From Patescibacteria group bacterium (lineage in GTDB: Bacteria; Patescibacteriota; Patescibacteriia; JBDRGY01), in NCBI GenBank assembly GCA_043817315.1, contig JBDRGY010000016.1, positions 69,445-133,444 of the forward strand: 64,000 nucleotides of DNA. Direction: 5' to 3'. Positions within the stretch are counted from its first letter, which is position 1. Every line of letters starts with the position of its first letter. Positions 29,463-59,461 of this stretch are shown piece after piece. The translations under genes were made by a program, and so were the position numbers. The notes under the pieces are model-generated. The model was not told where the DNA came from. It saw nothing but the letters and a program-made list of their open reading frames with translations, and ran no database searches.

Positions 29463-32400
29463 TTAAAAAAAGCCAGCCGCTATAGTAACTCCGCCTGTAT
29501 AGGAGACGTCATAGGCCAAAAATTCTGGCGACAATAACCGTCCTTCCTGGTTGTAGATCCTGATATAGGAAGCCCCTGAGCCCCCGACCCCCGTAATGAT
29601 CTCATCGTAGCCATTTCCGTTGGTGTCAACGGCCGTAACCGACACACCACCCCTTGAAGCCTCATCAAAGGCCATAAAACCAGGACTTAGTATTTCATAG
29701 GCCTGACTACGTCCCACCCCGAATATTCTGACATGGGGTCCGCCACTGCTGACAATTCCCGTTATGGTCTCTTGCTTGCCATCGTTATTGACGTCACCGG
29801 CACAAGAAGTGATGCCGCCTCTAAAACTTTCCTCATAGGCCATAATTCCTAAAGTAACTGGTGTATAGCGCCCTTCCCTCATGCCAAATATCCTGATATG
29901 AGGACCACCTCGGCTAGTGGGCGTAGTTATCAATTCGCTGATACCGTCACCATCCACGTCAGCAATGGAGACAGCAATTCCACCTCGAAAATTTACATCG
30001 TAAGCCATAAAATTCTCAGTGGTCGGAACTATCTCTCCGTTTCTCAGGCCGAATATTCTGACATTGGGACTGCCGCCACTGATTGGAGCCACTGCTATTT
30101 CATAGAGACCATCGCCTTCAATATCACCCACCCCGATATTGATACCGCCTTTAAAATTGGCGTCATAAGCGTCAAAATCCCAACCCAGATTGTTGCCGTC
30201 AACATCAAAAACCTTGATAGTAGGAACACCGCCCTCTCTGGTACTGGTAATTATTTCTGAAATTCCGTCACCATTGATGTCTCCTACAGCCACATTGATT
30301 CCTCCCCAAAAATCCATATCATAAGCGTAGAAATAATTTACCATCGTACCGTCAGTATTTAAAACACCAACTAGTGATTGACCATTTGACTTGGGGCCAG
30401 TAACAATGTAACGGTTGAGGGTATAAATATAAGTAAAGTAGGTGCCGTCAGAAATGTTATCCAGATCATCTACTGATTTTAGATGCAAATAGTAGGTGCC
30501 GTTGGCCGTCAGGGTAGGGACACTGAAATTAGTTCCAGTCTGGAAGGAACCGTCTTCGGCATCGGCAGTCAAGTCAGTTGATAGGTTCACATAATAACCT
30601 TTAATATCACTGGCAGCATCTACCGCCGCACTCCAGGTAAAGTAGGGTTGGGGGTGGCGATAGGAAACAGTGGCGGGATCAGACAACGCCTCCGTAGCTG
30701 TGCTGCTTGAGTAAACAGAATAAGTGGTAGGATCGGTAGGGCCTGTTTTGTCGATATTGGCGACTGTGGCTGTTGCACTTCCCGGGTTGCCGATTGAGTC
30801 AGCAAATTCAAAGGTGAAGCTGCCGTTTGCGGTAAATGTATATGTGGTAGCACCACTGTTGTTGGTTACAGTAACAGTTTCACTGGGCACTAAAGTGGCC
30901 ACCACGCTTTGATTAGTCGCGGCAGTGGTCGAATAGCTAATGGTGGCAGTGGGGGCTGTGGCATCGGTCTGGCTAAGCGCGTTATTGGCGTTGATCCGAC
31001 CACCGGTTTTAACTTTTCCGGTTAATGAGCTTTTGGTTTCAACATTATCGAGAATGGCATCTTTTATACCGGCATAGGTGTAATTGGGATTATATGACTT
31101 TAGTAAAGCAGCTAATCCGGCTACGTGCGGTGCTGCCATCGAAGTCCCGTTCATGTATGCATAGTTCTGTAGAGCAACAGTCGGATAGATAATCCTAATG
31201 TCATCAATTGCCGCTCCAAAATAATTGCTGTCTGATCCATTGGTCTCCCAGGTAAATCTCACTTTCATATTGCTATCTTTGTAGCTGGAAACATTAAATC
31301 CGCCAGTCCCCGATGTGGCTGAGCCGCAATAATATCCTAGTTCGGTCCAAGAACTACCGTTATAAACATCAGCCGACAGATAATCATTAAAGCATAGGGT
31401 TGAATCCTCTGCTTCCACATAATAATAGTATTGAAAAATAACGGTACTTTGTCCGGCAGTGTTAATGGCATCCGAGGTTAATACCCCGTCAGAGCTAGTC
31501 TGATAGGGGGAATAAGAAGTGTCACCATAAGCCCAGACATTGCCACTGGCAGTATCGGTCATCCAATAGTTATTGGTGCCGCTGCTGGTAAAATCCGTGC
31601 CATTAAAGCCCGGCTGGACGGCATTTTCGAACCCTTCATCGAATTCAAAATAAGGCACGGTGCTATATATATTAACTCCAGGAGCAGCCACATCAACTGA
31701 GGTGGTGCCATAATTGGAAAAGCCGGCCAAACTATCGTTTTGATCGGTGGCGGCCACTGAAATTATATTATCCAGATCATAATCAGAGGGATATTGATGA
31801 GTTCCTCCATCGTTGTTAGTAGCGTCATTGCCAGCTGCTGCCACTATCAAACAGTCGTAAGTAGTCATACCCTCCTCTATGGCGTCATACATGGCCTGCG
31901 AATAGCCAGATCCCCCTAGGCTCATGTTGATAACATCAGCTCCTTGGTCATAGGCTTCGTAAATTCCAGAAACGATATCAGCGTTCGTCCCGAAACCCGT
32001 CAGCCCCAATACCCTGATTGGCACAATTTTGATATCCGATCCAAATCCGGCAATCCCCTGTCCGTTATCAGCTACGGCCGCAATCACCCCGGCAACGTGA
32101 GTGCCGTGATCCAGAAAATCGTAGGCATTGGCATCGTCATCTACAAAGTCATATCCTTGTTCAATTTGAGAACTCAATTCGGGGTGGTATAGAGCTACTC
32201 CGCTATCAATCACGGCTACTGTTGCTTCGGAAGTACTGGCACCGGCCACAACATCCCAGGCGGCCGGCATGTCAATATCGGCATCGGCAGTGCCGGCGGT
32301 ACCGTTGACGGTCTGTCCTGTATTGTGTAGGCCCCACTGAACACCGTAATAGGTGTCGTTGGGGGTACTGGAGGCTTGATAAATATAATTAGGCTCTACA

Positions 32401-32747
32401 TACTCGACAAGCGGATTATCAATTAGGCCCTCGACAAGCTGCTGGGTGGTTTGACTATCAGATTTTAGTAAAGTAATGTTTTGTCTGGCTAATCTGGTTT
32501 TTTCCGTAAGATTTTCGCCCCGAGCCAGTGCTGTCATTTTATTTATTCCCCGGGACTGATTGAGGTCCAGATCGCTTTTCTTAAATTTCACCAGCACTTC
32601 TCCCTCTATATAGTCAGCCTTTTGTCTGTCGAACTCGGGCAATCGACCAACGCTGGAGCTGGCCGTTAATCGAGGAAATAAAATTAAAACAGCTATCCCA
32701 AAAATTAGAATAGCCCCAAGTCGTTTTATTTTTTTTGAGATAACCAT
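29463..32747 (-). CDS. Secreted subtilisin-like serine protease (peptidase S8) fused to a C-terminal array of about 7 FG-GAP-like propeller repeats
   Basis: Catalytic triad motifs AVIDSGV (Asp), HGTHVAGVIAA (His), GTSMAAPHVAGLAALL (Ser). N-terminal signal/anchor and an I9-like propeptide. C-terminal repeats GG-x-P-x-[IV]R[IV]FG...[FM]AYD...FRGG[IV]...[GA]D[VI][DN]GDG..E[IL]IT homologous to those of the other three large proteins. Own promoter (TTGTCA, 17 nt, TATAAT) at 32780-32809 on the minus strand. Confidence 0.85.
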   Translation of the reverse strand: MVISKKIKRLGAILIFGIAVLILFPRLTASSSVGRLPEFDRQKADYIEGEVLVKFKKSDLDLNQSRGINKMTALARGENLTEKTRLARQNITLLKSDSQTTQQLVEGLIDNPLVEYVEPNYIYQASSTPNDTYYGVQWGLHNTGQTVNGTAGTADADIDMPAAWDVVAGASTSEATVAVIDSGVALYHPELSSQIEQGYDFVDDDANAYDFLDHGTHVAGVIAAVADNGQGIAGFGSDIKIVPIRVLGLTGFGTNADIVSGIYEAYDQGADVINMSLGGSGYSQAMYDAIEEGMTTYDCLIVAAAGNDATNNDGGTHQYPSDYDLDNIISVAATDQNDSLAGFSNYGTTSVDVAAPGVNIYSTVPYFEFDEGFENAVQPGFNGTDFTSSGTNNYWMTDTASGNVWAYGDTSYSPYQTSSDGVLTSDAINTAGQSTVIFQYYYYVEAEDSTLCFNDYLSADVYNGSSWTELGYYCGSATSGTGGFNVSSYKDSNMKVRFTWETNGSDSNYFGAAIDDIRIIYPTVALQNYAYMNGTSMAAPHVAGLAALLKSYNPNYTYAGIKDAILDNVETKSSLTGKVKTGGRINANNALSQTDATAPTATISYSTTAATNQSVVATLVPSETVTVTNNSGATTYTFTANGSFTFEFADSIGNPGSATATVANIDKTGPTDPTTYSVYSSSTATEALSDPATVSYRHPQPYFTWSAAVDAASDIKGYYVNLSTDLTADAEDGSFQTGTNFSVPTLTANGTYYLHLKSVDDLDNISDGTYFTYIYTLNRYIVTGPKSNGQSLVGVLNTDGTMVNYFYAYDMDFWGGINVAVGDINGDGISEIITSTREGGVPTIKVFDVDGNNLGWDFDAYDANFKGGINIGVGDIEGDGLYEIAVAPISGGSPNVRIFGLRNGEIVPTTENFMAYDVNFRGGIAVSIADVDGDGISELITTPTSRGGPHIRIFGMREGRYTPVTLGIMAYEESFRGGITSCAGDVNNDGKQETITGIVSSGGPHVRIFGVGRSQAYEILSPGFMAFDEASRGGVSVTAVDTNGNGYDEIITGVGGSGASYIRIYNQEGRLLSPEFLAYDVSYTGGVTIAAGFF

Positions 32748-38638: not shown

Positions 38639-40894
38639 TTATTCAAACTTTTCTTCAGTCTTTTCTTCTGTTTCTTCTTCAGTCTCCTCTGCCTGGTTGT
38701 TATTCTCTTCTACTTCCTCGGCAGGGCTGGCTTTTTTTTCCCAAGCTTCTTCTAATATTTCACGCGGTTTGGCACCGTCAGCCGGACCAATAAAACCATG
38801 TTCTTCTAATATATCCAAAACTCTAGCGGCCCTTGCGTAGCCGATTCTCAAGCGGCGTTGCAGCAGAGAGGCCGAAGCCTTTCCAGCTCGCAAGATTACG
38901 TCTTTGGCTTCTTGTAGCAATTCCTCATCTTCTTCTAAATCAAAGTCTTCACTGGATTCGGCCGGGCCTTCTTTTTTGAGTACCTCTTCGTGAAAATCTG
39001 GCTTGGCGCGCTCTGAAATATATTCTACTACTTTTCTAATTTCTTCGTCCGCTAAAAATGCTCCTTGATACCTTCTTGGTTGCGAAATATCCGAAGAGCT
39101 GTAAAGCATGTCTCCACGACCCAGAAGTTTCTCTGCCCCGGAGTGGTCTAAGATAGTCCTGGAGTCAACTAATGAGGCTACGCTAAAAGCTATGCGGGCC
39201 GTAATATTGGCCTTAATCAACCCCGTTATTACATCTACTGACGGTCTCTGGGTGGCAACTATTAAATGAATACCAACTGCTCTGGCCATCTGAGCCAGTC
39301 TGGTTATGGCTGCCTCTACTTCATTGGCTGCTACACTCATCAAATCAGCTAATTCATCGATAACCAACACAATAAAAGGCATTTTCTCCTTGCTGGTGGC
39401 GTTGTAAGAATGGATGTTCCTTTTACCAGCATCTGATAATACTCGGAAACGATTGTCCATCTCTCTGACAATCCATTTTAAAGCATTAACGGTCTTGTCT
39501 GTTTCCGTGATAACCGGGGTCAATAAGTGGGGAAGTTTATTATAAACTGTAAATTCTACTCTCTTGGGATCAACCAGAATGAGTCTCAAGTCATTAGGAC
39601 TGTTTTGATAGAGAAGGCTGATAATAACGGCATTGATGCACACCGACTTTCCGGAACCTGTGGCGCCAGCAATCAAAAGGTGAGGCATGGAATCTAAATT
39701 GGCCATCCGGGACTTACCGGAAACATCTTTACCCAAAGGAATCATCAAACTTGATTTCCTCTTTTTAAAATCCTCTCCTACTAAAACCTCTCTCAGGCCG
39801 ACAATGGCTACTGTCTGGTTGGGGACTTCAATGCCCACTAACGATTTGCCGGGAATGGGCGCTTCTATCCTAAGCGGGTGGGCAGCCAAGGCCAGAGACA
39901 GGTCATTTTGCAAGGTGGTAATCTGCGACAATTTAATTCCCTGGGAGGGCCTTAGAGTATATTGAGTTACAGTCGGACCAACATTAACATCTCCCATCTC
40001 TACTGGTATACCAAAGTTTTCTAGGGTGCGTTTTATTTTTTCTAGATTGGCCCTGATATCACCGCTAGTCGGTTTGGAACCATTACTGTTTAACAAGTGA
40101 ATGGGCAAATCAATCTTGCCAATTTTGTGCTTGTCCCCCGGAAAAATCGCCATTTGTCCCTCGTCATTTTTTTCTTCGGCCACAATAATCGGGCCCTCTT
40201 TTTCCGCCCCATTCTCTGATCCTGCCATCTCTTTTTTCTGAAATTCTGGTTCTGATATACCTTCCCCCTCTTGGGGTAGTTCATCTTTTTTAAACCGGGT
40301 GCTATATCTGATACGGTTAATAAAATCACTAAGGCGGTTAAAAAAGTTTTTTAGAACTCCACCCTTGGCTAAACGGGCTAAGGTGGTATTAAACATGACT
40401 AACAGCGCAATGATCAAAAGTGCGATTAGGACAACCAAGGTGGCCCAACCGCCCATCATCTTCTGCAGAGGCCAAGCCAGAATTAAGCCGAAATAACCGC
40501 CCCCCTTACCCGAGGATATAGCTTCAAGACTCTCTTCGGGCCTATAGGTTAAATGCATCAAGCCAGAATAACTAAGCACCAGCAGGAACAATCCGATATA
40601 ATTTGATGTCCTAACTTGATATTTTTCCGGAAAAAGTAACAAATAGCCCAAAACAGCCAAAAGAATAGGTATAAACACTTTTCCCCAGCCGAAAAGATAA
40701 CGTAAACCGGTATCAATAAAATCCCCCACGCTGCCCGCCACATCCAAGAGACTCAGGAAAAAAATAAATGCCAAGGCGAAAAGGATTATTACGGCAATTC
40801 CTTTTTTGGTTTCAGCTTGTAAGAAAAATTTATCCTCCTTGGGGGAAGATTCATCTGATTTAGGGCGACGTTTTCTGGTGCCTTTTTGGGCCAT
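38639..40894 (-). CDS. ftsK: DNA translocase FtsK/SpoIIIE
   Basis: N-terminal 4-5 TM helices, motor domain with Walker A GATGSGKS, C-terminal gamma winged-helix (LLQRRLRIGYARAARVLD). Confidence 0.9.
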   Translation of the reverse strand: MAQKGTRKRRPKSDESSPKEDKFFLQAETKKGIAVIILFALAFIFFLSLLDVAGSVGDFIDTGLRYLFGWGKVFIPILLAVLGYLLLFPEKYQVRTSNYIGLFLLVLSYSGLMHLTYRPEESLEAISSGKGGGYFGLILAWPLQKMMGGWATLVVLIALLIIALLVMFNTTLARLAKGGVLKNFFNRLSDFINRIRYSTRFKKDELPQEGEGISEPEFQKKEMAGSENGAEKEGPIIVAEEKNDEGQMAIFPGDKHKIGKIDLPIHLLNSNGSKPTSGDIRANLEKIKRTLENFGIPVEMGDVNVGPTVTQYTLRPSQGIKLSQITTLQNDLSLALAAHPLRIEAPIPGKSLVGIEVPNQTVAIVGLREVLVGEDFKKRKSSLMIPLGKDVSGKSRMANLDSMPHLLIAGATGSGKSVCINAVIISLLYQNSPNDLRLILVDPKRVEFTVYNKLPHLLTPVITETDKTVNALKWIVREMDNRFRVLSDAGKRNIHSYNATSKEKMPFIVLVIDELADLMSVAANEVEAAITRLAQMARAVGIHLIVATQRPSVDVITGLIKANITARIAFSVASLVDSRTILDHSGAEKLLGRGDMLYSSSDISQPRRYQGAFLADEEIRKVVEYISERAKPDFHEEVLKKEGPAESSEDFDLEEDEELLQEAKDVILRAGKASASLLQRRLRIGYARAARVLDILEEHGFIGPADGAKPREILEEAWEKKASPAEEVEENNNQAEETEEETEEKTEEKFE

Positions 40895-40957
40895 AGTTCT
40901 AATATTAAGTTACTACATTTTAGCATTTTTGGTTGCTTTTAGCAAGGTGAAAACAGC

Positions 40958-40987
40958 CAAAAAAGACGGGTCTACCCCGTCTTTTTT
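40958..40987. terminator. Bidirectional terminator; left boundary of the GC-rich island
   Basis: AAAAAAGACGGG-ucuac-CCCGUCUUUUUU. Confidence 0.7.
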
Positions 40988-41003
40988 GGCTACTTACTGC
41001 TTT

Positions 41004-41216
41004 TTACCCGCCGGGCGGACCAACCGCTTGGTCAGGTTTGTCCTCGGTGCAGCAAGAATGAGGATGATCTGACCAGCAGGTTTTTATCTGTCCCCAGGTG
41101 GTACAAGTACCGTATCTAACTGGTCTAGCATCAGCCGCTTGAATTTGCAGGGCGACAACTGCGACTATGGCCACCAATAAGCAGGAGGCCATAATAACGA
41201 CATTTCTTTTGCTCAT
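41004..41216 (-). CDS. Small Sec-secreted 4-cysteine peptide, paralog 1 (mature about 39 aa)
   Basis: Signal peptide with A-D-A cleavage site, then RPVRYGTCTTWGQIKTCWSDHPHSCCTEDKPDQAVGPPGG. Strong RBS AGAGGGGGUGAG 5 nt upstream. Confidence 0.6.
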   Translation of the reverse strand: MSKRNVVIMASCLLVAIVAVVALQIQAADARPVRYGTCTTWGQIKTCWSDHPHSCCTEDKPDQAVGPPGG

Positions 41217-41268
41217 AATCTCACCCCCTCTCCTAAGAGGTTAATATTTAATAATTCACTTAATAAAT

Positions 41269-41469
41269 TTATTGAGGGTCGCCTACCTGGCTTTTAGGCT
41301 CTCCGCAGCAGGTGGCTGGGTTAGAGCCAAAACAGGATTTTATCTCCCCCCAGGTATCACAAGGCCCTTGTGTTTGTGCCCCTCCTCGGGCCTCGGCCAT
41401 CTTAACTCCAACCCCAGTGGCGATTAAAAGTAATGCCAGGCATACGCCCAGAATTATCATTTTTCTCAT
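41269..41469 (-). CDS. Small Sec-secreted 4-cysteine peptide, paralog 2
   Basis: Signal peptide (A-E-A site), then RGGAQTQGPCDTWGEIKSCFGSNPATCCGEPKSQVGDPQ. Same RBS AAAGGGGGUGAG. Confidence 0.6.
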   Translation of the reverse strand: MRKMIILGVCLALLLIATGVGVKMAEARGGAQTQGPCDTWGEIKSCFGSNPATCCGEPKSQVGDPQ

Positions 41470-41509
41470 AGACTCACCCCCTTTCTTTGAATCTTTTTAA
41501 TAACTATTT

Positions 41510-41719
41510 TCATTGTGGCTGCTCAATTTCGTCGACTATATGCTGGCAACACGGGTGATCGTTGCCTGGGTCTGCATCAAAACATTTCTTTAGTTCTGAC
41601 CAGGGGATATAACATCCATCAAGGTTATTTATCCTGGCTTCTGAAGTTTTTATTTTTACCCCCAAAATAACCATAGCAATTAGCAAAAAACAAGCGCTAA
41701 TAATAACTGTTTTTTTCAT
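41510..41719 (-). CDS. Small Sec-secreted 4-cysteine peptide, paralog 3
   Basis: Signal peptide (S-E-A site), then RINNLDGCYIPWSELKKCFDADPGNDHPCCQHIVDEIEQPQ. Same RBS AAAGGGGGUGAG. Confidence 0.6.
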   Translation of the reverse strand: MKKTVIISACFLLIAMVILGVKIKTSEARINNLDGCYIPWSELKKCFDADPGNDHPCCQHIVDEIEQPQ

Positions 41720-41831
41720 AAGCTCACCCCCTTTCGGTAGTCATTTAATGGTAAAACCTCCAATAAGGGCCGCTTGGCGATGAACGTATCACCACCAAGC
41801 GGGACCAATGAAGGTTCTACTCACAAGCTGG

Positions 41832-44753
41832 CTACTTGAGAAGCACCATCTTGCGCGAAGAACACTGTTGCCCTGTCTCCAGCCTATAGAAGTAAACGCC
41901 GGAGGCAACGGCTCTTCCATGGTTATCCCGACCTTGCCAGACCGCAGCCTGCTGACCAGCTTCCTGCTCTTCGTCAACAAGGTTGCAGACCAGTCGGCCC
42001 GCCACATCATAGACATAGAGCTGAACTGGGCCAGCTTGGCTAAGGCTGTAGGCGATGGTGGTAGTCGGATTGAAAGGATTGGGATGGTTGGGCAGCAACC
42101 GGAATGAGAACCCAGCTTCGGTGGCTTCCGCAACCCCGGTAGCGATGTCTTGCCAGCCAATCGGCAGAGTAGGATCACCCAGGATCGAGTACATCCGGAT
42201 CTGGTTATGAGTCTGAGGACACTCCTCGTAGGCCAGCTGCTTTGCTGCCAGCGTGGCCTCACCTAGTGTAGTTTCGTTCCCCATGTAGAGCTCACCCGCC
42301 AGATAACTGAAGATTTTGGAGTTGGTGTACTGATCTGAGATATCTGTAGGCCCCATCCAGGCCCTGGCTCCCTTGCCAGGTGCTGTCAGGAAGTCAGTAG
42401 CCATGTCCAGGCCCCAGCTGGATTCACCTCTGGTGAAATCAGCCATGCCGCAGCAGAAGCCGAAAACGATAGGACTGGTCCAGTTTTCTACCAAGTAAGT
42501 CATGTCGAAGTAGTTATTCCACTTGGTCAGAATAGACCCGTTGCTGATCCGGTTGGCCAAAGTGCTGAAGTAGAACTTGTAGTCGATTCCCGCATTCTGG
42601 ATAGCACAATCTGCATCCCGCCTGGCGGAATAGGAGAAAGGGTCATCCGAATAACGGTAAATCGTGGTACTGGCAGCCAGCTGCGGATCAAACTGACCAT
42701 AGATACTCATGGCCAGCGTCTCGGCATAGGCACCGCGGCAGCCTGACAGATTCCAGTTGCCAATCATCAGACCAGCCTGACAACGACCAGAGCGATCAAG
42801 ATGCCATTCTACAAACTTGTCGGCAACGATCCACAGCTCCTGGAGAGTATTGATTGGCACGCGGCCTACGGCTATGTTTTCTTGTCCATCACCGTCGGTA
42901 TCTCCGTACCAACCATCCCAGGCATAGAGATCATCGTCGCTGTAGTAACAACCGTCCCAGAGTACGTAGTAGCTTTGAATCAGATTCTGCCCTGGGAGCA
43001 GTCGATTGGCATCACCCCACAAAACAACGTGGGTAGGCAAGGGGTCCATAGCCAGAATGTAGTCTTTGATGTCCTGCGGCTGAGAAGTGGTCCCGAAATC
43101 TTCCAGGGCCACGAACTGAACCAGATGACCTTCTAGATACTCCAGGGTATAAACCCAGTAGTCCAAATGGTCAATCCAATCCGCCGGGCAGACACAGAGC
43201 ACATCCGGGTCAGTCAGCCCCCCATCCTTAGGTTCGCCATCTGGTTGCGGAGGTGTCTGATACTTGGGCTGGTAGACAACCGGCTCCACAAGTTCTGGTG
43301 GTTCCGGCCAGCTAGACAGTACCTCGGTGGAAAGATGCTCCAAGACATTCCCGCTTATCTCCATCTCAACAATCTGATAGAGAAAGTCGGGCTGTCCAAC
43401 AACATCACTCCAGTAATACTGGGCCCCTTGACCATCACTGCCCTGATGCCAGATCGGTTCACTGACTGTCTGCCAGGTAAATCCATCATCGAAAGAGCAT
43501 TTAACCTGGAAGTAGTCAGTGTCCTTTTCTGACTCAGTTTCCCAGTAGACGATTACCTGCCCACCTTCTTCTACGGCAGTCACTCCCAGCACTGATGCAG
43601 CTGGCGGTTCACCGTATTCGGAATAGTAGGCGGTTACGTAATCGTCATGGCTGGGGGGTCGGCAGTTTTTGCCGCTGTAAAACGGCGGTTGACCAAGGGG
43701 GTCAGTGTTGCCGTTAAGATAGCGGTCTTCACTATTTCTGCCTTTGACCTTGTCCCAGTTGACCCAACGAGGAAACTCACCGTAGGCGTGTACCCGGATG
43801 TCGTATTCCAGCTTGGTGTCGGAGTCTTTCAGCTCAATGTTTTCCAGCTCGGCATAGATTGAGGGCATACCAAGGATATCTTCTATGTTATCCTCTGCCT
43901 CAATCGGCGTGTCGAACTCGACATAGGCATCGTTGAAGCTGGATGACTGAAAGACGTAACCGGAATCCGGATAAACCGCACAAACAGCTGGAAACAACAC
44001 TGTATTGTCGTGGCCAACTATAGACCAGGCACCGTTGGTAGAAAACATGTGCTGATAGCCATGTTGAACCGTTCTTTTGGTCCGTCCTCGCTCGGCATTG
44101 AGATAGGTACAGAAGGTATCAATGCTAGCAAAGGCTTGAGTGTTAATCAGCTCTGGACAGTGACCAATGGCAGTGCCTGCTCCCCATTCATCCAGCCAGA
44201 GAGCACTAAAACAGTATTCGGCCAAGACAATAGACCGTTCATCCCCGGCAAAATCCCGACAGATATGAGGCCTAACTCCAATGCCATAATATCCTGTATA
44301 CCCGAAGTAGGCAGGATAAATGTCATCGGGGTAGCTGTATTGACCCCTTCTGACGTAGCGAATCAGGGCAGAGTCCCGGTCAGCCGAATGTCTGTAGGCT
44401 TCGATCATTAAACCATCAGGGCCATTGGCATCATTCTCGGTGCCGTGTGAAGAGATGGCCAGAATGGAAATCCCAGGCGTGCTGATCACGCTTCTGAAAT
44501 CAGCGATGGAGAACCGGGGAATGGTGTCAGGAGCCGGAGAGGTAACGTAGTACTTTTCCATGTCCAGATGGCTTTCTGTTTCCATCCGGTCAAAGGGAGC
44601 ACTATCGTCACCAAACTGAAACTCCCAAAGCAACAGATTAACCACTGTGCTGGTGTGCACTGTCCGATACTGATCAATGCGCTGCCAGGCTACATTGACC
44701 ACGGGTATCAGTAGCAGTCCTACCAACATGATTGTTGTGATTCTCTCTTTCAT
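41832..44753 (-). CDS. Large secreted protein with a T9SS-type C-terminal sorting domain (Por_Secre_tail-like) and a putative clan-CD (gingipain/C25-like) cysteine-peptidase region
   Basis: N-terminal signal peptide. The C-terminal 85 aa or so, FSFRLLPNHPNPFNPTTTIAYSLSQAGPVQLYVYDVAGRLVCNLVDEE...AVWQGRDNHGRAVASGVYFYRLETG...RKMVLLK, matches the type-A T9SS CTD pattern (NPFNP-x-T-x-I-x-Y-x-L, YD-x-x-GR-x-V, W-x-G-x-D-x-x-G-x-x-V-x-SG-V-Y-F-Y-R-L, K-[ML]-x-L-[LI]-K). An H-G dyad (ISSHGTEND) and a hydrophobic-strand Cys (IVLAEYCFS) suggest a caspase-fold protease. Real start is the ATG at 44753 (RBS AGGGGGG 8 nt upstream); the track ORF begins at an in-frame GTG. GC clearly higher than flanks. Confidence 0.6.
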   Translation of the reverse strand: MKERITTIMLVGLLLIPVVNVAWQRIDQYRTVHTSTVVNLLLWEFQFGDDSAPFDRMETESHLDMEKYYVTSPAPDTIPRFSIADFRSVISTPGISILAISSHGTENDANGPDGLMIEAYRHSADRDSALIRYVRRGQYSYPDDIYPAYFGYTGYYGIGVRPHICRDFAGDERSIVLAEYCFSALWLDEWGAGTAIGHCPELINTQAFASIDTFCTYLNAERGRTKRTVQHGYQHMFSTNGAWSIVGHDNTVLFPAVCAVYPDSGYVFQSSSFNDAYVEFDTPIEAEDNIEDILGMPSIYAELENIELKDSDTKLEYDIRVHAYGEFPRWVNWDKVKGRNSEDRYLNGNTDPLGQPPFYSGKNCRPPSHDDYVTAYYSEYGEPPAASVLGVTAVEEGGQVIVYWETESEKDTDYFQVKCSFDDGFTWQTVSEPIWHQGSDGQGAQYYWSDVVGQPDFLYQIVEMEISGNVLEHLSTEVLSSWPEPPELVEPVVYQPKYQTPPQPDGEPKDGGLTDPDVLCVCPADWIDHLDYWVYTLEYLEGHLVQFVALEDFGTTSQPQDIKDYILAMDPLPTHVVLWGDANRLLPGQNLIQSYYVLWDGCYYSDDDLYAWDGWYGDTDGDGQENIAVGRVPINTLQELWIVADKFVEWHLDRSGRCQAGLMIGNWNLSGCRGAYAETLAMSIYGQFDPQLAASTTIYRYSDDPFSYSARRDADCAIQNAGIDYKFYFSTLANRISNGSILTKWNNYFDMTYLVENWTSPIVFGFCCGMADFTRGESSWGLDMATDFLTAPGKGARAWMGPTDISDQYTNSKIFSYLAGELYMGNETTLGEATLAAKQLAYEECPQTHNQIRMYSILGDPTLPIGWQDIATGVAEATEAGFSFRLLPNHPNPFNPTTTIAYSLSQAGPVQLYVYDVAGRLVCNLVDEEQEAGQQAAVWQGRDNHGRAVASGVYFYRLETGQQCSSRKMVLLK

Positions 44754-44766
44754 GGCATCCACCCCC

Positions 44767-45387
44767 CTAATTCGAAGAGTTGGATGGCTGCTCAGTTGCC
44801 TTCTCGGTCACGATCAAGCCGTCCTGGTAGTACACTCTGCGACCTTGCTGCAACAAGCGAGCCAACAACGCCATGCGAGATTTGGCCATAGCTTCGTCTG
44901 TTCTAGTCGGACTAGTCCTGGCCTGGAACACCTTGAGCTTGGGAATAGGAAAGTCCCGTTCCTTAACCTGGATACTTCCATTGTCCAAGACCTTAACCCA
45001 CTCGTAGATGTCAGGGTGCTGGCCATACACTGCGTCAGCAACCTGCTGGGTAATTTCTTTCTTGTCACGACCAGGTTCTGCATCGACCAGCTGCTGGAAC
45101 AGGCTATAGGCCTGATCATCCAGCTGATCCTTGATGTTGACTGAATCGGGCTGTTGCATCTTGGTGTCGCCAAGGGTCGGGTAAATCCTGACTCCATTGA
45201 CGAAGGCCTCGCTCCCCACAACCTTAAGGAAGTAGGGGCCAAGCACTTCCTGCTCACCCTCTTCATCAACTACCACGAACTGACCCGTCTCTATCAAGAG
45301 ACTGTCAGGCAGCGCGGGCGTGTCGTTGGCTACTACAGTCACGGCCATCAGGGCCACGATCATCATTGCGAGACTAAGGTGTCTCAT
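44767..45387 (-). CDS. Secreted hypothetical protein (206 aa), first gene of the island operon
   Basis: Start trimmed to MRHLSLAMMIVALMAVTVVA (ATG at 45387, RBS AAAGGAG). Signal peptide. Its stop TAG overlaps the RBS of the 976-aa gene. Confidence 0.5.
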   Translation of the reverse strand: MRHLSLAMMIVALMAVTVVANDTPALPDSLLIETGQFVVVDEEGEQEVLGPYFLKVVGSEAFVNGVRIYPTLGDTKMQQPDSVNIKDQLDDQAYSLFQQLVDAEPGRDKKEITQQVADAVYGQHPDIYEWVKVLDNGSIQVKERDFPIPKLKVFQARTSPTRTDEAMAKSRMALLARLLQQGRRVYYQDGLIVTEKATEQPSNSSN

Positions 45388-45532
45388 GGTGGTCACGCTC
45401 CTTTCAGGATTACTCCAACTGCCAATTGACCAATCGATCTGTTGCGGCAAGAAAACACCTCCTCTCAACCACGTTAGACGTTTACTGCGCTTTCCTTTCT
45501 TAGAAAACCATGGATTTTCAAGGTACGTATCC

Positions 45533-45552
45533 AAAAAAAACCTCATATGAGG
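45533..45552 (-). terminator. Intrinsic terminator on the minus strand about 200 nt downstream of rpoC; right boundary of the island
   Basis: Minus strand reads GAAAG-CCUCAUAUGAGG-UUUUUUUU. Confidence 0.65.
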
Positions 45553-45752
45553 CTTTCAAGCTATAGTCCGTCTATAACAAGACGTGCCGGTTTCGCTACT
45601 AGCTCCCTGCAGTTCAAGCGACCAGATACAAACTACAGTTCTTAGCCTCACCTTTTGTTTCCGTCGGAATAGCACTTCTGTCAATAGAACTTATCCACAG
45701 GGGTAACAAAAAACCCGATTTCTTAGCACTTTTATCAGGTTTCTTGACTATT

Positions 45753-48700
45753 TTAGGTTGGTTTATAGCCTGTTCCAGCTGGTATTTGACGACCAATAAT
45801 AACATTTTCCTTAAGGCCTCTTAGCCTATCAACTTTGCCTGAAACAGCTGCGTCAATCAGCACCCTGGCTGTCTCCTGGAAAGAGGCGGCAGACAGAAAA
45901 CTCTCGGTTGATAACGAAGCCTTGGTTATGCCCAGCAATAAATTGTCAGCTACTGCTTCTTTCTTATTATCTTTCTGTGCCTTGGCATTGGCAATGACAA
46001 ACTGGGAGCGTTCAACAACTTCTCCAGACAATAATTCAGTTTCGCCGGCATCCCGAATGTAAAAGCGGGAAAACATTTTTCGTATTATTATCTCAATGTG
46101 TTTATCGTTTAACTTCTGTCCTTGGGAAGAATAGATGTATTGAATCTCTTTGATAACGTATTTTTCTACTGCCCCTCTGCCCCTGAGACGATATAAATTG
46201 TGTACATCGATACTGCCTTCGGTTAATTGATCACCGATGTTAACTAGATCACCCTCATTTACCCAGACAGTAAACCTGGTGGGCACCAAACATTCGTTTA
46301 TCTTTTCTTTTTCAATAATTATTTCCAATGAGTTATCTTTTATCTTGACCACACCGCCTGCCTTGGCCACTACTTTTTGATCTTTGGTCTCGTATAGCAA
46401 GTCGTCTTTTTTGACTTCTTGTTTATCTTTTACCCTGAGATTCTTTTTAGCACTCTCCTTTAGCGGATATTGATCTCTGTCAACTTGGGTGTGCCGGATC
46501 TTTATCAGTTTCTGTCTGGTTTTTCCATCTTTGGCTGTTGTTTCTTCGATCGATTCAACTTTGCCATCAACTTCCGAAAGCACGGCTGATTTTTTTACAG
46601 GACGCGCTTCAAATAATTCTTCCACTCGGGGCAAACCTTGGGTAATATCCAAACCTGCTACTCCGCCAGTATGAAAAGTTCTCATGGTCAATTGGGTCCC
46701 TGGTTCTCCAATACTCTGCGCCGCGATAATGCCTACGGCAGCTCCTAGCTCTACCAACTTGTTATAAGCCAAGTCATGCCCGTAGCATTGACGACAGATT
46801 CCTCTTTGAGCCTGACAAGTTAAAACATTGCGGGCTCTGACTTCTTGGGGATCTATTTTCGTTAATTCTTCAGCTATCTTTTCGGTAATCAACTGATTCT
46901 TGTCTACTATCGTTTTCTTGGTTTTGGGGTTAACTATTTTTTCCAGACAAACTCGGCCCACTACCCTCTTTACCAGATTTTCACCCATTTCCTCACTTTC
47001 TTTTTTAGTAAAGACCACCCCTTCTCTATCACCGCAATCATCCAAAGAAATTACCATGTCTTGGGCCACATCAACCAGCCTTCTGGTCAGATAGCCGGCG
47101 TTAGCAGTTCGTAGGGCGGTATCAGCCAATCCTTTTCGGGCTCCATGGGTAGAGATAAAATATTCTAAAACATCAAATCCTTCTTTGAAACTTCCTTTAA
47201 CGGGCAGCTCAATGGTTTCTCCGGCCGGGTTAGTCACCAATCCTTTCATTCCCATCATCTGGGTAATTTGCGGCCAAGAACCTCTGGAACCAGATTCTAC
47301 CATTTGATAAACAGAACCCGATGAATCAAGGGCATTCTTGCTAAGTTGGGTAATCTGGTCTTTGACGGCGGCCCAAACTTCTACTATTTTAATATGTCTC
47401 TCCTCTGCGGTCAGCAGGCCAGTCTCAAAATGACTGTTGATTTCATCAACTTTTTTGTCGCCTTCTTCGACCAGTTTTTTCTTTATTTCCAGGGGGGGTA
47501 AGTCATCCATGCCCCAACTGATACCTGATAGGGTAAGAAATTCCAAACTGACTCTCTTGATCTGGTCCAGAAATTCAGCTGTCTCGGCAGAACTCCATTC
47601 TTGTAAAGTGCGACTAATAATGTCTTTCAGAATCTTTTTATTCATCACCTCATTAATATAGCCAAAAAATGGCGGCAAAATTCTATTGATCAGGACCCTA
47701 CCGCAATTAGTTTCTACTAATTTACCGTTTATTCTAACTTTAATTTTTTGCTGGATAGTTATCTGGCCCAAACGATAAGCCATAATTACTTCGTCAAAAG
47801 AAACAAAGTGTTTAAGCTTATCCTGGTCTCCTTCTTGCAATATAGTCATATTATAACAACCTAAAACAATGTCCTGAGAAGGTGTGGTTACCGGTTCGCC
47901 GGTAGCTGGTTTCAGAAGGTTGTTGGATGATAGCATAATGGTGGCGGCTTCTTTCTTGGCTTCTTCGGTCAGGGGCAGATGCACAGCCATTTGGTCACCA
48001 TCGAAATCGGCATTAAATGGAGCACATATTAGTGGATGAATCTGGATGGCCTTGCCTTCAATCAAAACTGGCTGGAAAGCTTGGATTCCCAAACGATGAA
48101 GGGTGGGGGCCCTATTAAGCAGCACATGAGAGCCTTTGGTTATTTGTTCTAGAATATCCCATACTTCCGGCCGGCCCGATTCGATCAATCTGGTGGCCGA
48201 ACGAACATTGTGAACGAATTCATCTTTGATCAGTCTGCTTATTACAAATGGTTTAAAAAGTTCCAGGGCCATTGTCTTGGGAATGCCGCATTGTCCGATC
48301 TTCAAATAGGGGCCAATAACAATGACAGAACGACCGGAATAATCAACACGCTTACCCAGTAAGTTTTGGCGGAATCTACCTTGTTTGCCTTTTAACATGT
48401 CAGCTAGGGATTTAAGCTGTCTCTTCTGTCCTGTGGAAGCGGTAACTGTTTTACCGTGACGGGCTCCGTTATCAATAAGAGCATCCACTGCCTCCTGCAA
48501 CATTCTCTTTTCATTACGGGTAATAACCTCAGGAGCATTAAGCTCCTTGAGGCGTTTAAGACGATTGTTTCGATTAATAACTCTTCTATACAAATCGTTC
48601 AAATCCGAAGCAGCAAAACGTCCGCCGTCCAGCTGGACCATGGGGCGCAAATCGGGTGGAATAACAGGAACGGTTGTCAAAATCATCCACTCCGGCTTGA

Positions 48701-49628
48701 TGTTGTTAGCCTTCAGGTTGGACACTAGTTTTTGACGACGCAGTATTTTTCTTTTACGATTTTTATTTGAAGAAGCAACTTTCTTCTTTGACTCGGTAAT
48801 CTCTTTTTCTAGATTTATCGATCTCAGCAATTTGTGTATGGCCTCTGCTCCAATGCCCGCTTCAAAAACATGTCCGTATTTTAGGGACAAATCCTGATAA
48901 GTATTTTCAGAAATTATCTGGAGCGGTTTAAGGTTGCGTAATTCTTTCTTGGCTAAATCAGCTGCCTCTTCCAGTTCTTTCAGTTCTTCCTCTTTTTGGC
49001 GAGCGTTGTTTACTAATTCCTGATCAGCCCAGGCTTCAGTTTCTTTCTTGTTTTTGTCATCCTTGGCTTTTCCTAATTTTTGGGTTTTCTGCTGTTTGAC
49101 CGAACTTACTTTTTGGTTAAAGCTATTGTCGATATTTTTCTTCTTTGAATGAACCTCTTGGTCGATCTGTTTTAAGGTTTCTTCCCGTAGTTCCTCATCA
49201 ACAGCTATAATAATAAAACTGGCAAAGTAGATAACCTTTTCTAGGCTTTGCACTGAAAGGCCCAGGATTAATCCAATTTTTGAGGGCACTCCGCGCAAAA
49301 ACCAGATATGGGAAACTGGAGCGGCCAGATCAATGTGACCCATTCTTTCTCGACGCACAATAGAACGAGTTACTTCAACTCCGCACTTATCACAAATAAT
49401 ACCTTTATAGCGAATGCGTTTGTATTTTCCGCAGTAACACTCCCAGTCCTTGGAGGGGCCGAAAATTCTTTCACAAAACAGGCCATCTTTCTCTGGTCTT
49501 TGGGTACGATAATTAATCGTTTCCGGCTTGGTTATTTCCCCATTGGACCATTTATGGATAACATCCGGGGAAGCCAGTTTTAGCTTGATGGCATCGAAAT
49601 TGATGTTTCTTTCGTTGTCTTGTGCCAT
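45753..49628 (-). CDS. rpoC: DNA-directed RNA polymerase subunit beta'
   Basis: Zn finger CYCGKYKRIRYKGIICDKCG, catalytic NADFDGD, 1291 aa; 2 nt after rpoB. Confidence 0.97.
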   Translation of the reverse strand: MAQDNERNINFDAIKLKLASPDVIHKWSNGEITKPETINYRTQRPEKDGLFCERIFGPSKDWECYCGKYKRIRYKGIICDKCGVEVTRSIVRRERMGHIDLAAPVSHIWFLRGVPSKIGLILGLSVQSLEKVIYFASFIIIAVDEELREETLKQIDQEVHSKKKNIDNSFNQKVSSVKQQKTQKLGKAKDDKNKKETEAWADQELVNNARQKEEELKELEEAADLAKKELRNLKPLQIISENTYQDLSLKYGHVFEAGIGAEAIHKLLRSINLEKEITESKKKVASSNKNRKRKILRRQKLVSNLKANNIKPEWMILTTVPVIPPDLRPMVQLDGGRFAASDLNDLYRRVINRNNRLKRLKELNAPEVITRNEKRMLQEAVDALIDNGARHGKTVTASTGQKRQLKSLADMLKGKQGRFRQNLLGKRVDYSGRSVIVIGPYLKIGQCGIPKTMALELFKPFVISRLIKDEFVHNVRSATRLIESGRPEVWDILEQITKGSHVLLNRAPTLHRLGIQAFQPVLIEGKAIQIHPLICAPFNADFDGDQMAVHLPLTEEAKKEAATIMLSSNNLLKPATGEPVTTPSQDIVLGCYNMTILQEGDQDKLKHFVSFDEVIMAYRLGQITIQQKIKVRINGKLVETNCGRVLINRILPPFFGYINEVMNKKILKDIISRTLQEWSSAETAEFLDQIKRVSLEFLTLSGISWGMDDLPPLEIKKKLVEEGDKKVDEINSHFETGLLTAEERHIKIVEVWAAVKDQITQLSKNALDSSGSVYQMVESGSRGSWPQITQMMGMKGLVTNPAGETIELPVKGSFKEGFDVLEYFISTHGARKGLADTALRTANAGYLTRRLVDVAQDMVISLDDCGDREGVVFTKKESEEMGENLVKRVVGRVCLEKIVNPKTKKTIVDKNQLITEKIAEELTKIDPQEVRARNVLTCQAQRGICRQCYGHDLAYNKLVELGAAVGIIAAQSIGEPGTQLTMRTFHTGGVAGLDITQGLPRVEELFEARPVKKSAVLSEVDGKVESIEETTAKDGKTRQKLIKIRHTQVDRDQYPLKESAKKNLRVKDKQEVKKDDLLYETKDQKVVAKAGGVVKIKDNSLEIIIEKEKINECLVPTRFTVWVNEGDLVNIGDQLTEGSIDVHNLYRLRGRGAVEKYVIKEIQYIYSSQGQKLNDKHIEIIIRKMFSRFYIRDAGETELLSGEVVERSQFVIANAKAQKDNKKEAVADNLLLGITKASLSTESFLSAASFQETARVLIDAAVSGKVDRLRGLKENVIIGRQIPAGTGYKPT

Positions 49629-56920: not shown

Positions 56921-59461
56921 CTATAGATTAACCCCGTTGAGGTAGCCCTTGGGATAGGCAATAAATTCATTGAGCAATAAAGTGCCCCGCCAATTGTATA
57001 CTCTGACCTTAGCTACGTCGCCACTTTCTATTGCTGTCACTATTTCAGCCTGGCCGTCACTATCCAGGTCAGCACTGGCCACATTGACTCCGCCCTGAAA
57101 GGAAGAATCAAAAGCCATGAAACCAGGGTTTAATAAACTGATGGTACTTTGTCTGTTGCGGCCAAATACTCTGATATGCGGTCCTCCAGCGGACACTACT
57201 CCGGTGATAATTTCATCAGCTCCATCGCTGTTTAGATCGCCGCAGGCTAAATTAATACCGCCCCGGAAACTTTCCTCGTAGGCCATCAAGCCCAGGATAA
57301 CCGGGCGATAGACGCCATTACGATAACCAAAGATTCGTAAATGAGGCCCCCCCTGAGATTTTGGGGCAGTTATGATTTCTGACAAACCGTCTCCTTCCAG
57401 ATCGCCGACAGCCAGATTGACCCCGCCGCGAAATCCTGAATCATAAGCCATGAAATTCTCGGTGGTCGGCAAATACTGTCCGTTGCGATAACCGAAAATT
57501 CGAATATTGGGACCGCCTCCGGAAAGTGGAGCCACTACTATTTCAGCCAAGCCACTGCCGTCCAAGTCACCGGTAGCCAGGGCTAACCCTCCTTGAAAGT
57601 TGCTATCAAAAGCCAGTACCACTTTTTCCAGAGTTCCCTGGGTATTAAATATCCTGATTTCGCCCCGACGGCCCGGGCCGGAAGCTGTAATAATTTCTTG
57701 ATTACCATCGCCATCCACGTCAGCTTTAGCCACCTTAACACCGCCACGGAAACTTTCTTCAAAAGCCATGAATTGGCTGACTAAATTTCCGTACTGATCC
57801 AATATTCTGACCTGGGGACCTCCTCCCTGTTTGGTGCCAGTAATAATCTGGTTGGTTACTTGAAAAGGCTCAAAGTCAGTTTGTAACGTATAAGTAGCCG
57901 AATCTTGATTGCCCAACCAATAGGCTTGGTTGAAGTCAGTAATGTCTAAGAAATGATATTCCATTTGTCCTGCTGCGGCCAGGCGAACGACCAGCCCCGT
58001 ATCAAACATACGATCAGTCGGATATGGAATAGCAGTATGGCCGGCAACTATGCCCTGGCTGTGATCATGGAGATCGGCGTAGCTAAACGGGTTTCTGGTT
58101 TCCATGAACATCCCCCAATAGGTAGAGGCCGTCTCTGAAGGGATTGTCCAAAGGCCCGAACTGTTAGTACCTCCGGAATACTTAATCATGTCTTCAAAGC
58201 CATAGGCTGATTCCTGAAAAATGGCAATTCCTGCTTGGGGCAAAGGATCGCCGTTTTTGTCCAAAACCTTTATCTTATTTTGAGCTGGAATATCTTTTAA
58301 ATACTCCCCGGGTATGCCCCTCCGCTTGGGCAGTCCCCTTCTATCTCCTGAGATGTCAGTGTAATAATTGTTAAAACGGATCAGGGCCAATATGGAATAT
58401 TCGGAAAAATACTGCTCGTTGATACTGTTTAAGAGGCCCGAGTGTCTGTTTTTATAAACATAGTCAGTCTCCACCTCGAGCATGCCCAGTCCACCACCTA
58501 CTGTGGCTCCATCCTCATCAGTAATATGAACATCAGAAGTATAAATAGATAGCTTAGACAAATCGACTAAGCCCAGGGTGTTAATGGCTAGGTTGCGCAA
58601 TAAATTCCAGTCAGTCGTTTTGGCATAAGCATTAACATAATCAGGGTCAGCGCACCAAATTCCCCGGTCCAGACAATCGTTGTCATCATAATCCCAAGCA
58701 ATATTCCAAGAACCATCGTACAGCCAATCCTCGGACCCAGTGCTACTGTCTATCTCACCATTGGCATGAATGTAAATATTATCAATTCGGACCCGTAGAT
58801 TAGCGCCGCTTGAAGTAGTAGAGCCCGTGGCACCGGTTAGGGCTTGATTCAAAATTTCATTGAAGGCACTGACTTGCTGCTGCAGCCAGTCTTCACAAGA
58901 ATAGGACCCTGCGCTGTTTTTCTGGTAATCAAAAGCGGAACAAAAGCCTTCCTCGACATGAAATATTAAGGAGAGGGTGTTGGTCTTTTCGGTCAATAAG
59001 TTATTCTGTTCTGATATTTCTTCAATGGTACCCTCGGGGTCAACCTGGAATTTGATGGTGTGGGTCCCGTCCACCCAGCGCCACAAATAGTCTTGAGTGG
59101 TGTAAGAGCCAGGGTTGAGATTGCTAATGGTTCCCGACGAAACTTCGACACCGTCAACGTACCATTTAAAACCAAACTCCCCTGAGATAACATTGCCCTG
59201 ATTGGTAATCTGAGCAGTGAATGTAACCATCTCTTCTTCTTCGGGCCAGCGCTGCCAGAATTCAGTACCAGTTTTCAGACGATACTGGCCATTCAATCCT
59301 CTTTCGGTGTGATATTTTTCATAGCGAGGTGTCCTGGAAATAAAGGTAACGTCCAAATCGGCCAGTTCACTCTCGTCTGTTGTCGCTTCTGTCTTCTCAA
59401 CCAAAAAGAAGCCGGAGATTATTAGGGCTAAAATGACTAGATAATATTTTTTCTTAACCAT
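56921..59461 (-). CDS. Secreted 846-aa protein with a C-terminal array of about 6 FG-GAP-like propeller repeats
   Basis: Signal peptide MVKKKYYLVILALIISGFFLVEKTEA. N-terminal beta-sandwich, then an unassigned middle domain. C-terminal repeats GGGPQVRILDQYGNLVSQFMAFEESFRGGVKVAKADVDGDGNQEIIT... homologous to those in the 1463-aa, 1725-aa and S8 proteins. Overlaps cutA by 25 nt. Confidence 0.75.
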   Translation of the reverse strand: MVKKKYYLVILALIISGFFLVEKTEATTDESELADLDVTFISRTPRYEKYHTERGLNGQYRLKTGTEFWQRWPEEEEMVTFTAQITNQGNVISGEFGFKWYVDGVEVSSGTISNLNPGSYTTQDYLWRWVDGTHTIKFQVDPEGTIEEISEQNNLLTEKTNTLSLIFHVEEGFCSAFDYQKNSAGSYSCEDWLQQQVSAFNEILNQALTGATGSTTSSGANLRVRIDNIYIHANGEIDSSTGSEDWLYDGSWNIAWDYDDNDCLDRGIWCADPDYVNAYAKTTDWNLLRNLAINTLGLVDLSKLSIYTSDVHITDEDGATVGGGLGMLEVETDYVYKNRHSGLLNSINEQYFSEYSILALIRFNNYYTDISGDRRGLPKRRGIPGEYLKDIPAQNKIKVLDKNGDPLPQAGIAIFQESAYGFEDMIKYSGGTNSSGLWTIPSETASTYWGMFMETRNPFSYADLHDHSQGIVAGHTAIPYPTDRMFDTGLVVRLAAAGQMEYHFLDITDFNQAYWLGNQDSATYTLQTDFEPFQVTNQIITGTKQGGGPQVRILDQYGNLVSQFMAFEESFRGGVKVAKADVDGDGNQEIITASGPGRRGEIRIFNTQGTLEKVVLAFDSNFQGGLALATGDLDGSGLAEIVVAPLSGGGPNIRIFGYRNGQYLPTTENFMAYDSGFRGGVNLAVGDLEGDGLSEIITAPKSQGGPHLRIFGYRNGVYRPVILGLMAYEESFRGGINLACGDLNSDGADEIITGVVSAGGPHIRVFGRNRQSTISLLNPGFMAFDSSFQGGVNVASADLDSDGQAEIVTAIESGDVAKVRVYNWRGTLLLNEFIAYPKGYLNGVNL

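Follow-up and report, generated by a model that had tools for sequence, protein, structure and literature searches.

A secreted protein with a gingipain/PorU-like domain and a type IX-like C-terminal domain lies in a conserved gene module of a Patescibacteria contig

The window analysed here, a stretch of 64 kb from a contig of an ultrasmall Patescibacteria bacterium, encodes a secreted protein in which a Peptidase_C25 domain is followed by a well-formed CTD (C-terminal domain) of the type-A class known from the T9SS (type IX secretion system). The gene is the middle member of a conserved three-part module, and its product belongs to a sizeable and so far undescribed family. As a whole, the best explanation, to which we give about an even chance of being right, is that the module was laterally acquired, that its products are exported by Sec only, that the CTD has a non-T9SS role and that clan-CD machinery acts on the co-encoded peptides.

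The C25-CTD gene and its host

The open reading frame at 41832..44762 (minus strand) is real and has two possible starts, a GTG at 44762, which gives 976 aa, and an ATG at 44753, which gives 973 aa, is preceded by the ribosome-binding site GGGGGTGG, corresponds to the NCBI annotation and agrees with the end coordinate of an earlier note on this DNA. Residue numbers follow the 976-aa form. The protein is 100% identical to the NCBI entry ‘C25 family cysteine peptidase [Patescibacteria group bacterium]’, and its AF2 model (a 41-sequence run) had a pLDDT of 87.4. An N-terminal charged region and hydrophobic core, MKERITTIMLVGLLLIPVV, can be read from the sequence, and the protein thus combines a predicted Sec signal peptide with a CTD at the extreme C-terminus.

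Every tested protein of the 152 kb contig is labelled ‘Patescibacteria group bacterium’ at NCBI, and its FtsK has Falkowbacteria and further Patescibacteria MAGs among its closest relatives in the species-representative genomes. The Patescibacteria are a monoderm phylum (PMC11665869). Taxon labels of MAG contigs can err, and among the relatives one is labelled Chloroflexi and another, on a 3 kb contig, Syntrophobacteria. The features of the locus are collected in Table 1.

Table 1 Features of the locus, with positions in the 64 kb window
Feature	Position	Strand	Remarks
Whole insertion	40895..45752	-	4.9 kb, between ftsK (38639-40894) and rpoC (45753-49628)
Upstream partner gene	44767..45387	-	206-aa secreted protein; stop 4-13 nt before the C25 start
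Secreted C25-like protein gene with CTD	41832..44753	-	973 aa from ATG 44753
N-terminal alpha/beta domain, residues 30-262	43977..44675	-	S-H106-G107 and C184, each after a strand
Fn3/Ig-like beta-sandwich, residues 375-482	43317..43640	-	
Peptidase_C25 (gingipain/PorU-like) domain, residues 522-867	42162..43199	-	Cys771 present, Thr734 at the catalytic His position
Type-A T9SS-like CTD/FlgD-Ig beta-sandwich, residues 886-976	41835..42107	-	Invariant G922, RKMVLLK end
Small secreted peptide 1, 69 aa	41510..41719	-	IPWSELKKCF; ribosome-binding site GGGGGTGAG, A-x-A signal-peptide end, shared motif
Small secreted peptide 2, 66 aa	41269..41469	-	DTWGEIKSCF; tandem paralogue (repeat D1)
Small secreted peptide 3, 70 aa	41004..41216	-	TTWGQIKTCW; shared motif
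Hairpin with flanking A/T runs	40944..41002	.	Inverted repeat I1 with 27-nt arms, ending the module on the ftsK side

Domain architecture and conservation of the family

Family members are proteins of ~950-1020 aa with a signal peptide, an N-domain with His-Gly and Cys, an Fn3-like domain, a C25 domain lacking the His and a type-A CTD. The last ~85 aa had been proposed in the earlier note to be such a CTD, and this was borne out both by NCBIfam TIGR04183, which scores 36.8 bits (cutoff 23) over residues 894-973, and by an alignment in which PNPFNP, the G-R at the start of beta4, GVYFY and RKMxLLK match the CTDs of Cloacimonas, Gemmatimonadetes, Zixibacteria and the FCB group motif for motif. 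The two profiles named for checking it gave a divided answer, as Pfam Por_Secre_tail (PF18962) reached 24.2 bits, just under its GA of 27; FlgD_ig (PF13860) matched the same domain with 29.3 bits, above its GA of 27, so the membership call depends on the library. A phmmer search of the single protein against the PDB gave a marginal FlgD match only. By definition (PMC11285876), a type-A CTD is a compact 3+4 Ig-like beta-sandwich that has a conserved Gly where beta4 begins and a Lys within its last strand, and both the predicted fold and the sequence of the present domain agree with such a sandwich. TIGR04183 is matched by 40 of the 41 family members, and no part of the protein is better conserved than the CTD, with 54% identity between the two CPR copies.

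The assignment of the C25 domain rests on a PF01364 match above the gathering score and on a gingipain fold. Its Cys771 is invariant (41/41) and aligns with the Cys of RgpB (VACVNGDF) and of PorU; the catalytic G-H-G His (YTGHGSE in RgpB, YAGHG in PorU) is absent, Thr734 standing opposite it within the family consensus G-T-x-x-N-R. An S-H-G motif is conserved instead in the separate N-terminal domain. It was there that the earlier note had seen an H-G dyad and a Cys and guessed at a gingipain-like clan-CD peptidase. The residues are real and conserved, H106-G107 following the strand at 98-104 of the AF2 model and C184 that at 178-182, and as a conserved motif the guess is supported, although the Pfam Peptidase_C25 match falls elsewhere, on residues 522-867. 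The His is found in 38, the Gly in 35 and the Cys in 40 of the 41 members; P0003, P0004 and P0034, which are close relatives, lack the His and P0035 lacks the Cys.

That the N-domain may be a second clan-CD-like catalytic core is nevertheless treated here as a hypothesis, because it had no PDB sequence match even at an E value of 10, because one of 18 members showed a weak Pfam C25 match (PF01364 positions 210-323, the catalytic core, E 0.0016) and because hhalign of the N-domain against the C25 domain, with Cys aligned to Cys, gave E values of 0.011-0.016, which are not significant. With Thr at the canonical C25 His position and no N-domain His in three close relatives, the protein could, judged by its residues, be a pseudo-enzyme.

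Search for a T9SS and for other CTDs

A Pfam scan of the window ORFs of at least 150 aa, all of them housekeeping, found no T9SS component, in agreement with the earlier note, and the CTD HMM found no second CTD ORF in the 64 kb. The four other large proteins (6726-11117, 11320-16497, 29463-32747 and 56921-59461) each have FG-GAP repeats close to the C-terminus and lack a CTD, as had been observed. In the 1.9 Mb of fetched loci, CTDs were confined to the C25-CTD family and one ORF on a 65% GC non-CPR contig, and no T9SS genes were found in the flanks of the CPR-type relatives examined; in the window and these flanks the gene accordingly does not co-occur with Sov/SprA, PorV, PorK/L/M/N or PorU together with many CTD cargos. 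Species without T9SS genes have been reported to have no CTD proteins (PMC11285876), and the CTD/T9SS pairing is for this reason normally all-or-none, with many cargos. A literature search found no paper linking T9SS or CTD to the Patescibacteria/CPR. The earlier note had considered a private T9SS serving a single cargo; as the host belongs to a monoderm phylum (PMC11665869), a T9SS of its own serving the C25-CTD protein is very unlikely, a judgement that draws on phylum biology and 64 kb of a MAG.

A three-part module with a shared short motif

The module, which comprises an upstream secreted protein or lipoprotein of ~200-260 aa whose gene is tightly coupled to the C25 gene, the C25-CTD protein and one to three small secreted peptides, was found in seven contexts: the window and the loci L001, L004, L116, L119, L120 and L121, the last a Kerfeldbacteria MAG. 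The mechanical ORF of the upstream partner in the window extends back to 45546, and a signal-peptide-like start, MRHLSLAMMIVALMAV, lies behind an AAAGGAG site. This partner is homologous to the gene at the same position in L001 (E 4e-6) and L004 (E 5e-11), and genes of like size and position in L116, L119 and L120 align with the upstream partners. Neither the upstream partner nor the small peptides have a Pfam or NCBIfam family. The ribosome-binding site of peptide 1 is strong, and the gene for peptide 2 is spaced ~250 bp from its neighbours. A lactococcin-972 identity of peptide 3 was rejected, the 14.7-bit match lying mainly on the signal peptide, as was Arg-specific processing of the small peptides at A-E-A-R, where an ordinary A-x-A signal-peptidase site is favoured.

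The small peptides of the module carry the motif (T/S)-W-(G/S)-x-(I/L)-K-x-x-(Y/F/W). The pattern W[GSA].[ILV]K..[YFW] had 19 matches in a six-frame translation of 1.97 Mb, every one on a module-carrying locus, and within this sequence the motif is module-specific. Eighteen matches are small peptides or the gene adjoining the C25 gene, and the remaining one ends a protein ~9.6 kb off in L004. In three cases the match is the very C-terminal end (...WGRIK(S/A)MYR) of a secreted protein of ~404 aa, of which one lies on L004 and one on L122, the third being its copy on the duplicate contig L123; in the CPR small peptides the motif is found near the mature N-terminus, not at the C-terminus. A W-G-x-I-K-x-x-Y-R tag was not found in NCBIfam or Pfam.

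Insertion site and evolutionary history

The upstream and C25 genes stand out in composition, with GC3 values of 0.58/0.62 (0.615 for the upstream partner) against 0.38-0.52 in every other window gene (about 0.42). Four more distant CPR contigs have no module between rpoC and ftsK, and in L042, L043 and L103 these genes are about 100-345 bp apart, i.e. the site is empty; these contigs came from an RpoC scan of metagenome contigs in which the best matches were at most 59% and swamped by a universal motif. An FtsK scan of genome contigs gave no close empty site, since the nearest species representatives, 50-65% identical, have neither rpoC-ftsK synteny nor the module. The same insertion site is occupied in L001-L003, which represent a related CPR lineage whose RpoB is 85% identical and whose sister C25-CTD gene is 36% identical, and the order rpoB-rpoC-module-ftsK is seen in three separately assembled records of this related organism (ENA, JGI and Logan). 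In the Kerfeldbacteria MAG the module lies downstream of rpoC and is compositionally native (GC3 of 0.83 compared with 0.81 for rpoC), with the CTD intact. The window gene and P0002 group as sisters with 80% bootstrap support, nested in a clade with 100% support whose other members are high in GC and sit on 60-65% GC contigs. Re-searching with the 41-member family profile returned the same five proteins only. At the borders of the insertion no integrase, att-like or long flanking repeats were found, only the tandem small-gene repeat and the terminator hairpin, and promoter and terminator scans of the locus performed no better than shuffles.

The lateral origin of the upstream and C25 genes is supported by their GC3, the empty sites and the high-GC clade. 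To this extent the earlier suggestion of a recent import with an orphaned signal has stood; the gene is, however, neither recent, given the divergent sister gene at the same site and the native Kerfeldbacteria copy, nor orphaned, given the conservation of its CTD. Because of their host-like GC, the small-peptide genes may differ in history from the two large genes. Module GC3 is 0.58-0.70 in both sister lineages despite the 36% identity, which fits poorly with either a single old or two independent acquisitions.

Discussion

From the architecture and the setting of the module we infer the export route, the role of the CTD, the catalysis and its substrate as follows. The upstream and C25 genes would have come from a GC-richer donor and been gained by the common ancestor of the window and L001 lineages. 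The C25-CTD protein would exit the cell via Sec alone and, there being no outer membrane to cross, its CTD would not be a translocation signal; a conserved, laterally moving module in a single-membrane host argues for some role other than type IX secretion, and the CTD may have been kept as an Ig-like beta-sandwich for the module, e.g. to dock to a partner or the envelope, or to give the enzyme a handle. The co-encoded W-G-x-I-K peptides may be what the clan-CD machinery processes or, in a sortase-like manner, transfers, with the His and Cys of the N-domain as the likeliest active pair. A bolder form of this explanation, to which we incline little, is a self-contained, T9SS-independent sorting or processing system, in which a tandem clan-CD enzyme (the N-terminal His/Cys core plus the His-less PorU/gingipain-fold core) would read a short W-G-x-I-K-x-x-Y(R) tag both on the co-encoded peptides and, in other phyla, on larger secreted proteins, and cleave or transfer them at the monoderm surface, the CTD having a role that does not require, and perhaps predates, the T9SS translocon.

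The likeness of the CTD to the type-A class in sequence and predicted fold, together with the finding that a profile search of the PDB matches the whole protein best to PorU, which belongs to the T9SS and retains a CTD of its own, might suggest genuine T9SS cargo, for which the host or its lineage would have a T9SS-like outer-membrane pathway used by this protein only; against a monoderm phylum, the lack of T9SS genes in the window and in every CPR-type flank examined, and the reported absence of CTD proteins where T9SS genes are absent (PMC11285876), we give this almost no credence. No more credible is an assembly or binning artefact, in which a GC-rich foreign fragment was stitched into a CPR contig: the GC step is sharp at both gene boundaries, but both junctions lie within one 152 kb contig, the gene order recurs in the three separately assembled records, rpoC is followed by the module again in the NCBI Kerfeldbacteria MAG, and the small-peptide genes within the insertion resemble the host in both GC and ribosome-binding sites.

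Two further alternatives deserve more weight, although both seem to us unlikely. The gene might be a relic from a diderm CTD-user, its CTD being functionless baggage that has not yet decayed in the CPR host, as the foreign GC3 of the two large genes, the lack of any other CTD in the window and the nearest clade would allow, that clade including 60-65% GC contigs, two with further CTD/FlgD_ig proteins and one with an OmpA-family gene. A useless tail of ~85 aa would, however, be expected to erode or become truncated over such divergence, whereas the CPR sister copies, only 36% identical overall, retain 54% identity and all motifs in the CTD, the compositionally native Kerfeldbacteria copy keeps it and so do 40 of the 41 members. 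Alternatively, both clan-CD-like domains may be pseudo-enzymes and the protein a non-catalytic adhesin or scaffold, whose Fn3 domain and CTD would bind a host cell or the co-encoded peptides. The change of the C25 catalytic His to Thr across the whole family, the loss of the N-domain His in three members and of the Cys in P0035, and the abundance of surface proteins in CPR genomes (PMC11665869) speak for this; the retention of Cys771, His106 and Cys184 in 41, 38 and 40 of 41 sequences that are only 20-36% identical is nevertheless hard to explain without chemistry at these residues.

Finding a type-A CTD is taken as diagnostic of type IX secretion. Its conservation in good form on a PorU/gingipain-fold family that recurs in the monoderm Patescibacteria runs contrary to the published statement that CTD proteins are absent from species without T9SS genes (PMC11285876). 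If our preferred explanation is right, CTD HMM matches in uncultured lineages would be no evidence for a T9SS, the CTD fold would serve at least one function outside the Sov/PorV pathway, and the family would bear on the origin of both the T9SS signal and the sortase PorU. In addition, the locus is a clear example of genes entering a reduced CPR genome, at a site between two core genes. To our knowledge, the mechanisms by which CPR bacteria interact with their hosts are largely unknown, and the module with its short shared motif would provide a testable enzyme-substrate hypothesis for CPR surface biology.

Comparison with known systems

Among the closest known systems is PorU (PDB 6za2; NCBIfam NF033707), which serves the T9SS of Porphyromonas gingivalis as C-terminal signal peptidase/sortase. 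The C25-CTD protein does not reach the equivalog level of NF033707, scoring 51.5 bits, mostly from the CTD, against a cutoff of 420; it has Thr where PorU has the His of G-H-G, and PorU is without its extra N-terminal HG/Cys domain. On the outer membrane, PorU acts together with PorV, PorZ and PorQ as an attachment complex; none of the family members examined has such genes nearby, the host lacks an outer membrane, PorV, PorZ and A-LPS, and the gene neighbours differ. The gingipains RgpB and Kgp (MEROPS C25, clan CD) are only about 15% identical to the C25-CTD protein, and have the catalytic His in place of its Thr; it lacks a gingipain prodomain and haemagglutinin-adhesin domains and is found in monoderm hosts. 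From type-A T9SS CTDs such as those of mirolase (8qb1) and PorZ (5m11), the present domain differs in having no T9SS in reach, in its monoderm host, in its PF18962 score below the threshold and in being the sole CTD of its genome neighbourhood. With separase (clan CD, C50), in which a pseudo-protease and an active protease stand in tandem and which gave alignments with the AF2 model, the likeness is one of analogy, with no sequence relationship beyond the fold.

The module resembles systems of a dedicated sorting enzyme and a short cognate tag (sortase/LPXTG, exosortase/PEP-CTERM and PorU/CTD) in that the gene for a protein of cysteine-peptidase fold stands beside those for small proteins with one short motif. 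Cleavage or transfer by the module is putative, and the CPR peptides differ from the substrates of such tag systems in bearing the motif near the mature N-terminus; in relatives of the module, however, it occupies the extreme C-terminus of larger secreted proteins, as a sorting tag does.

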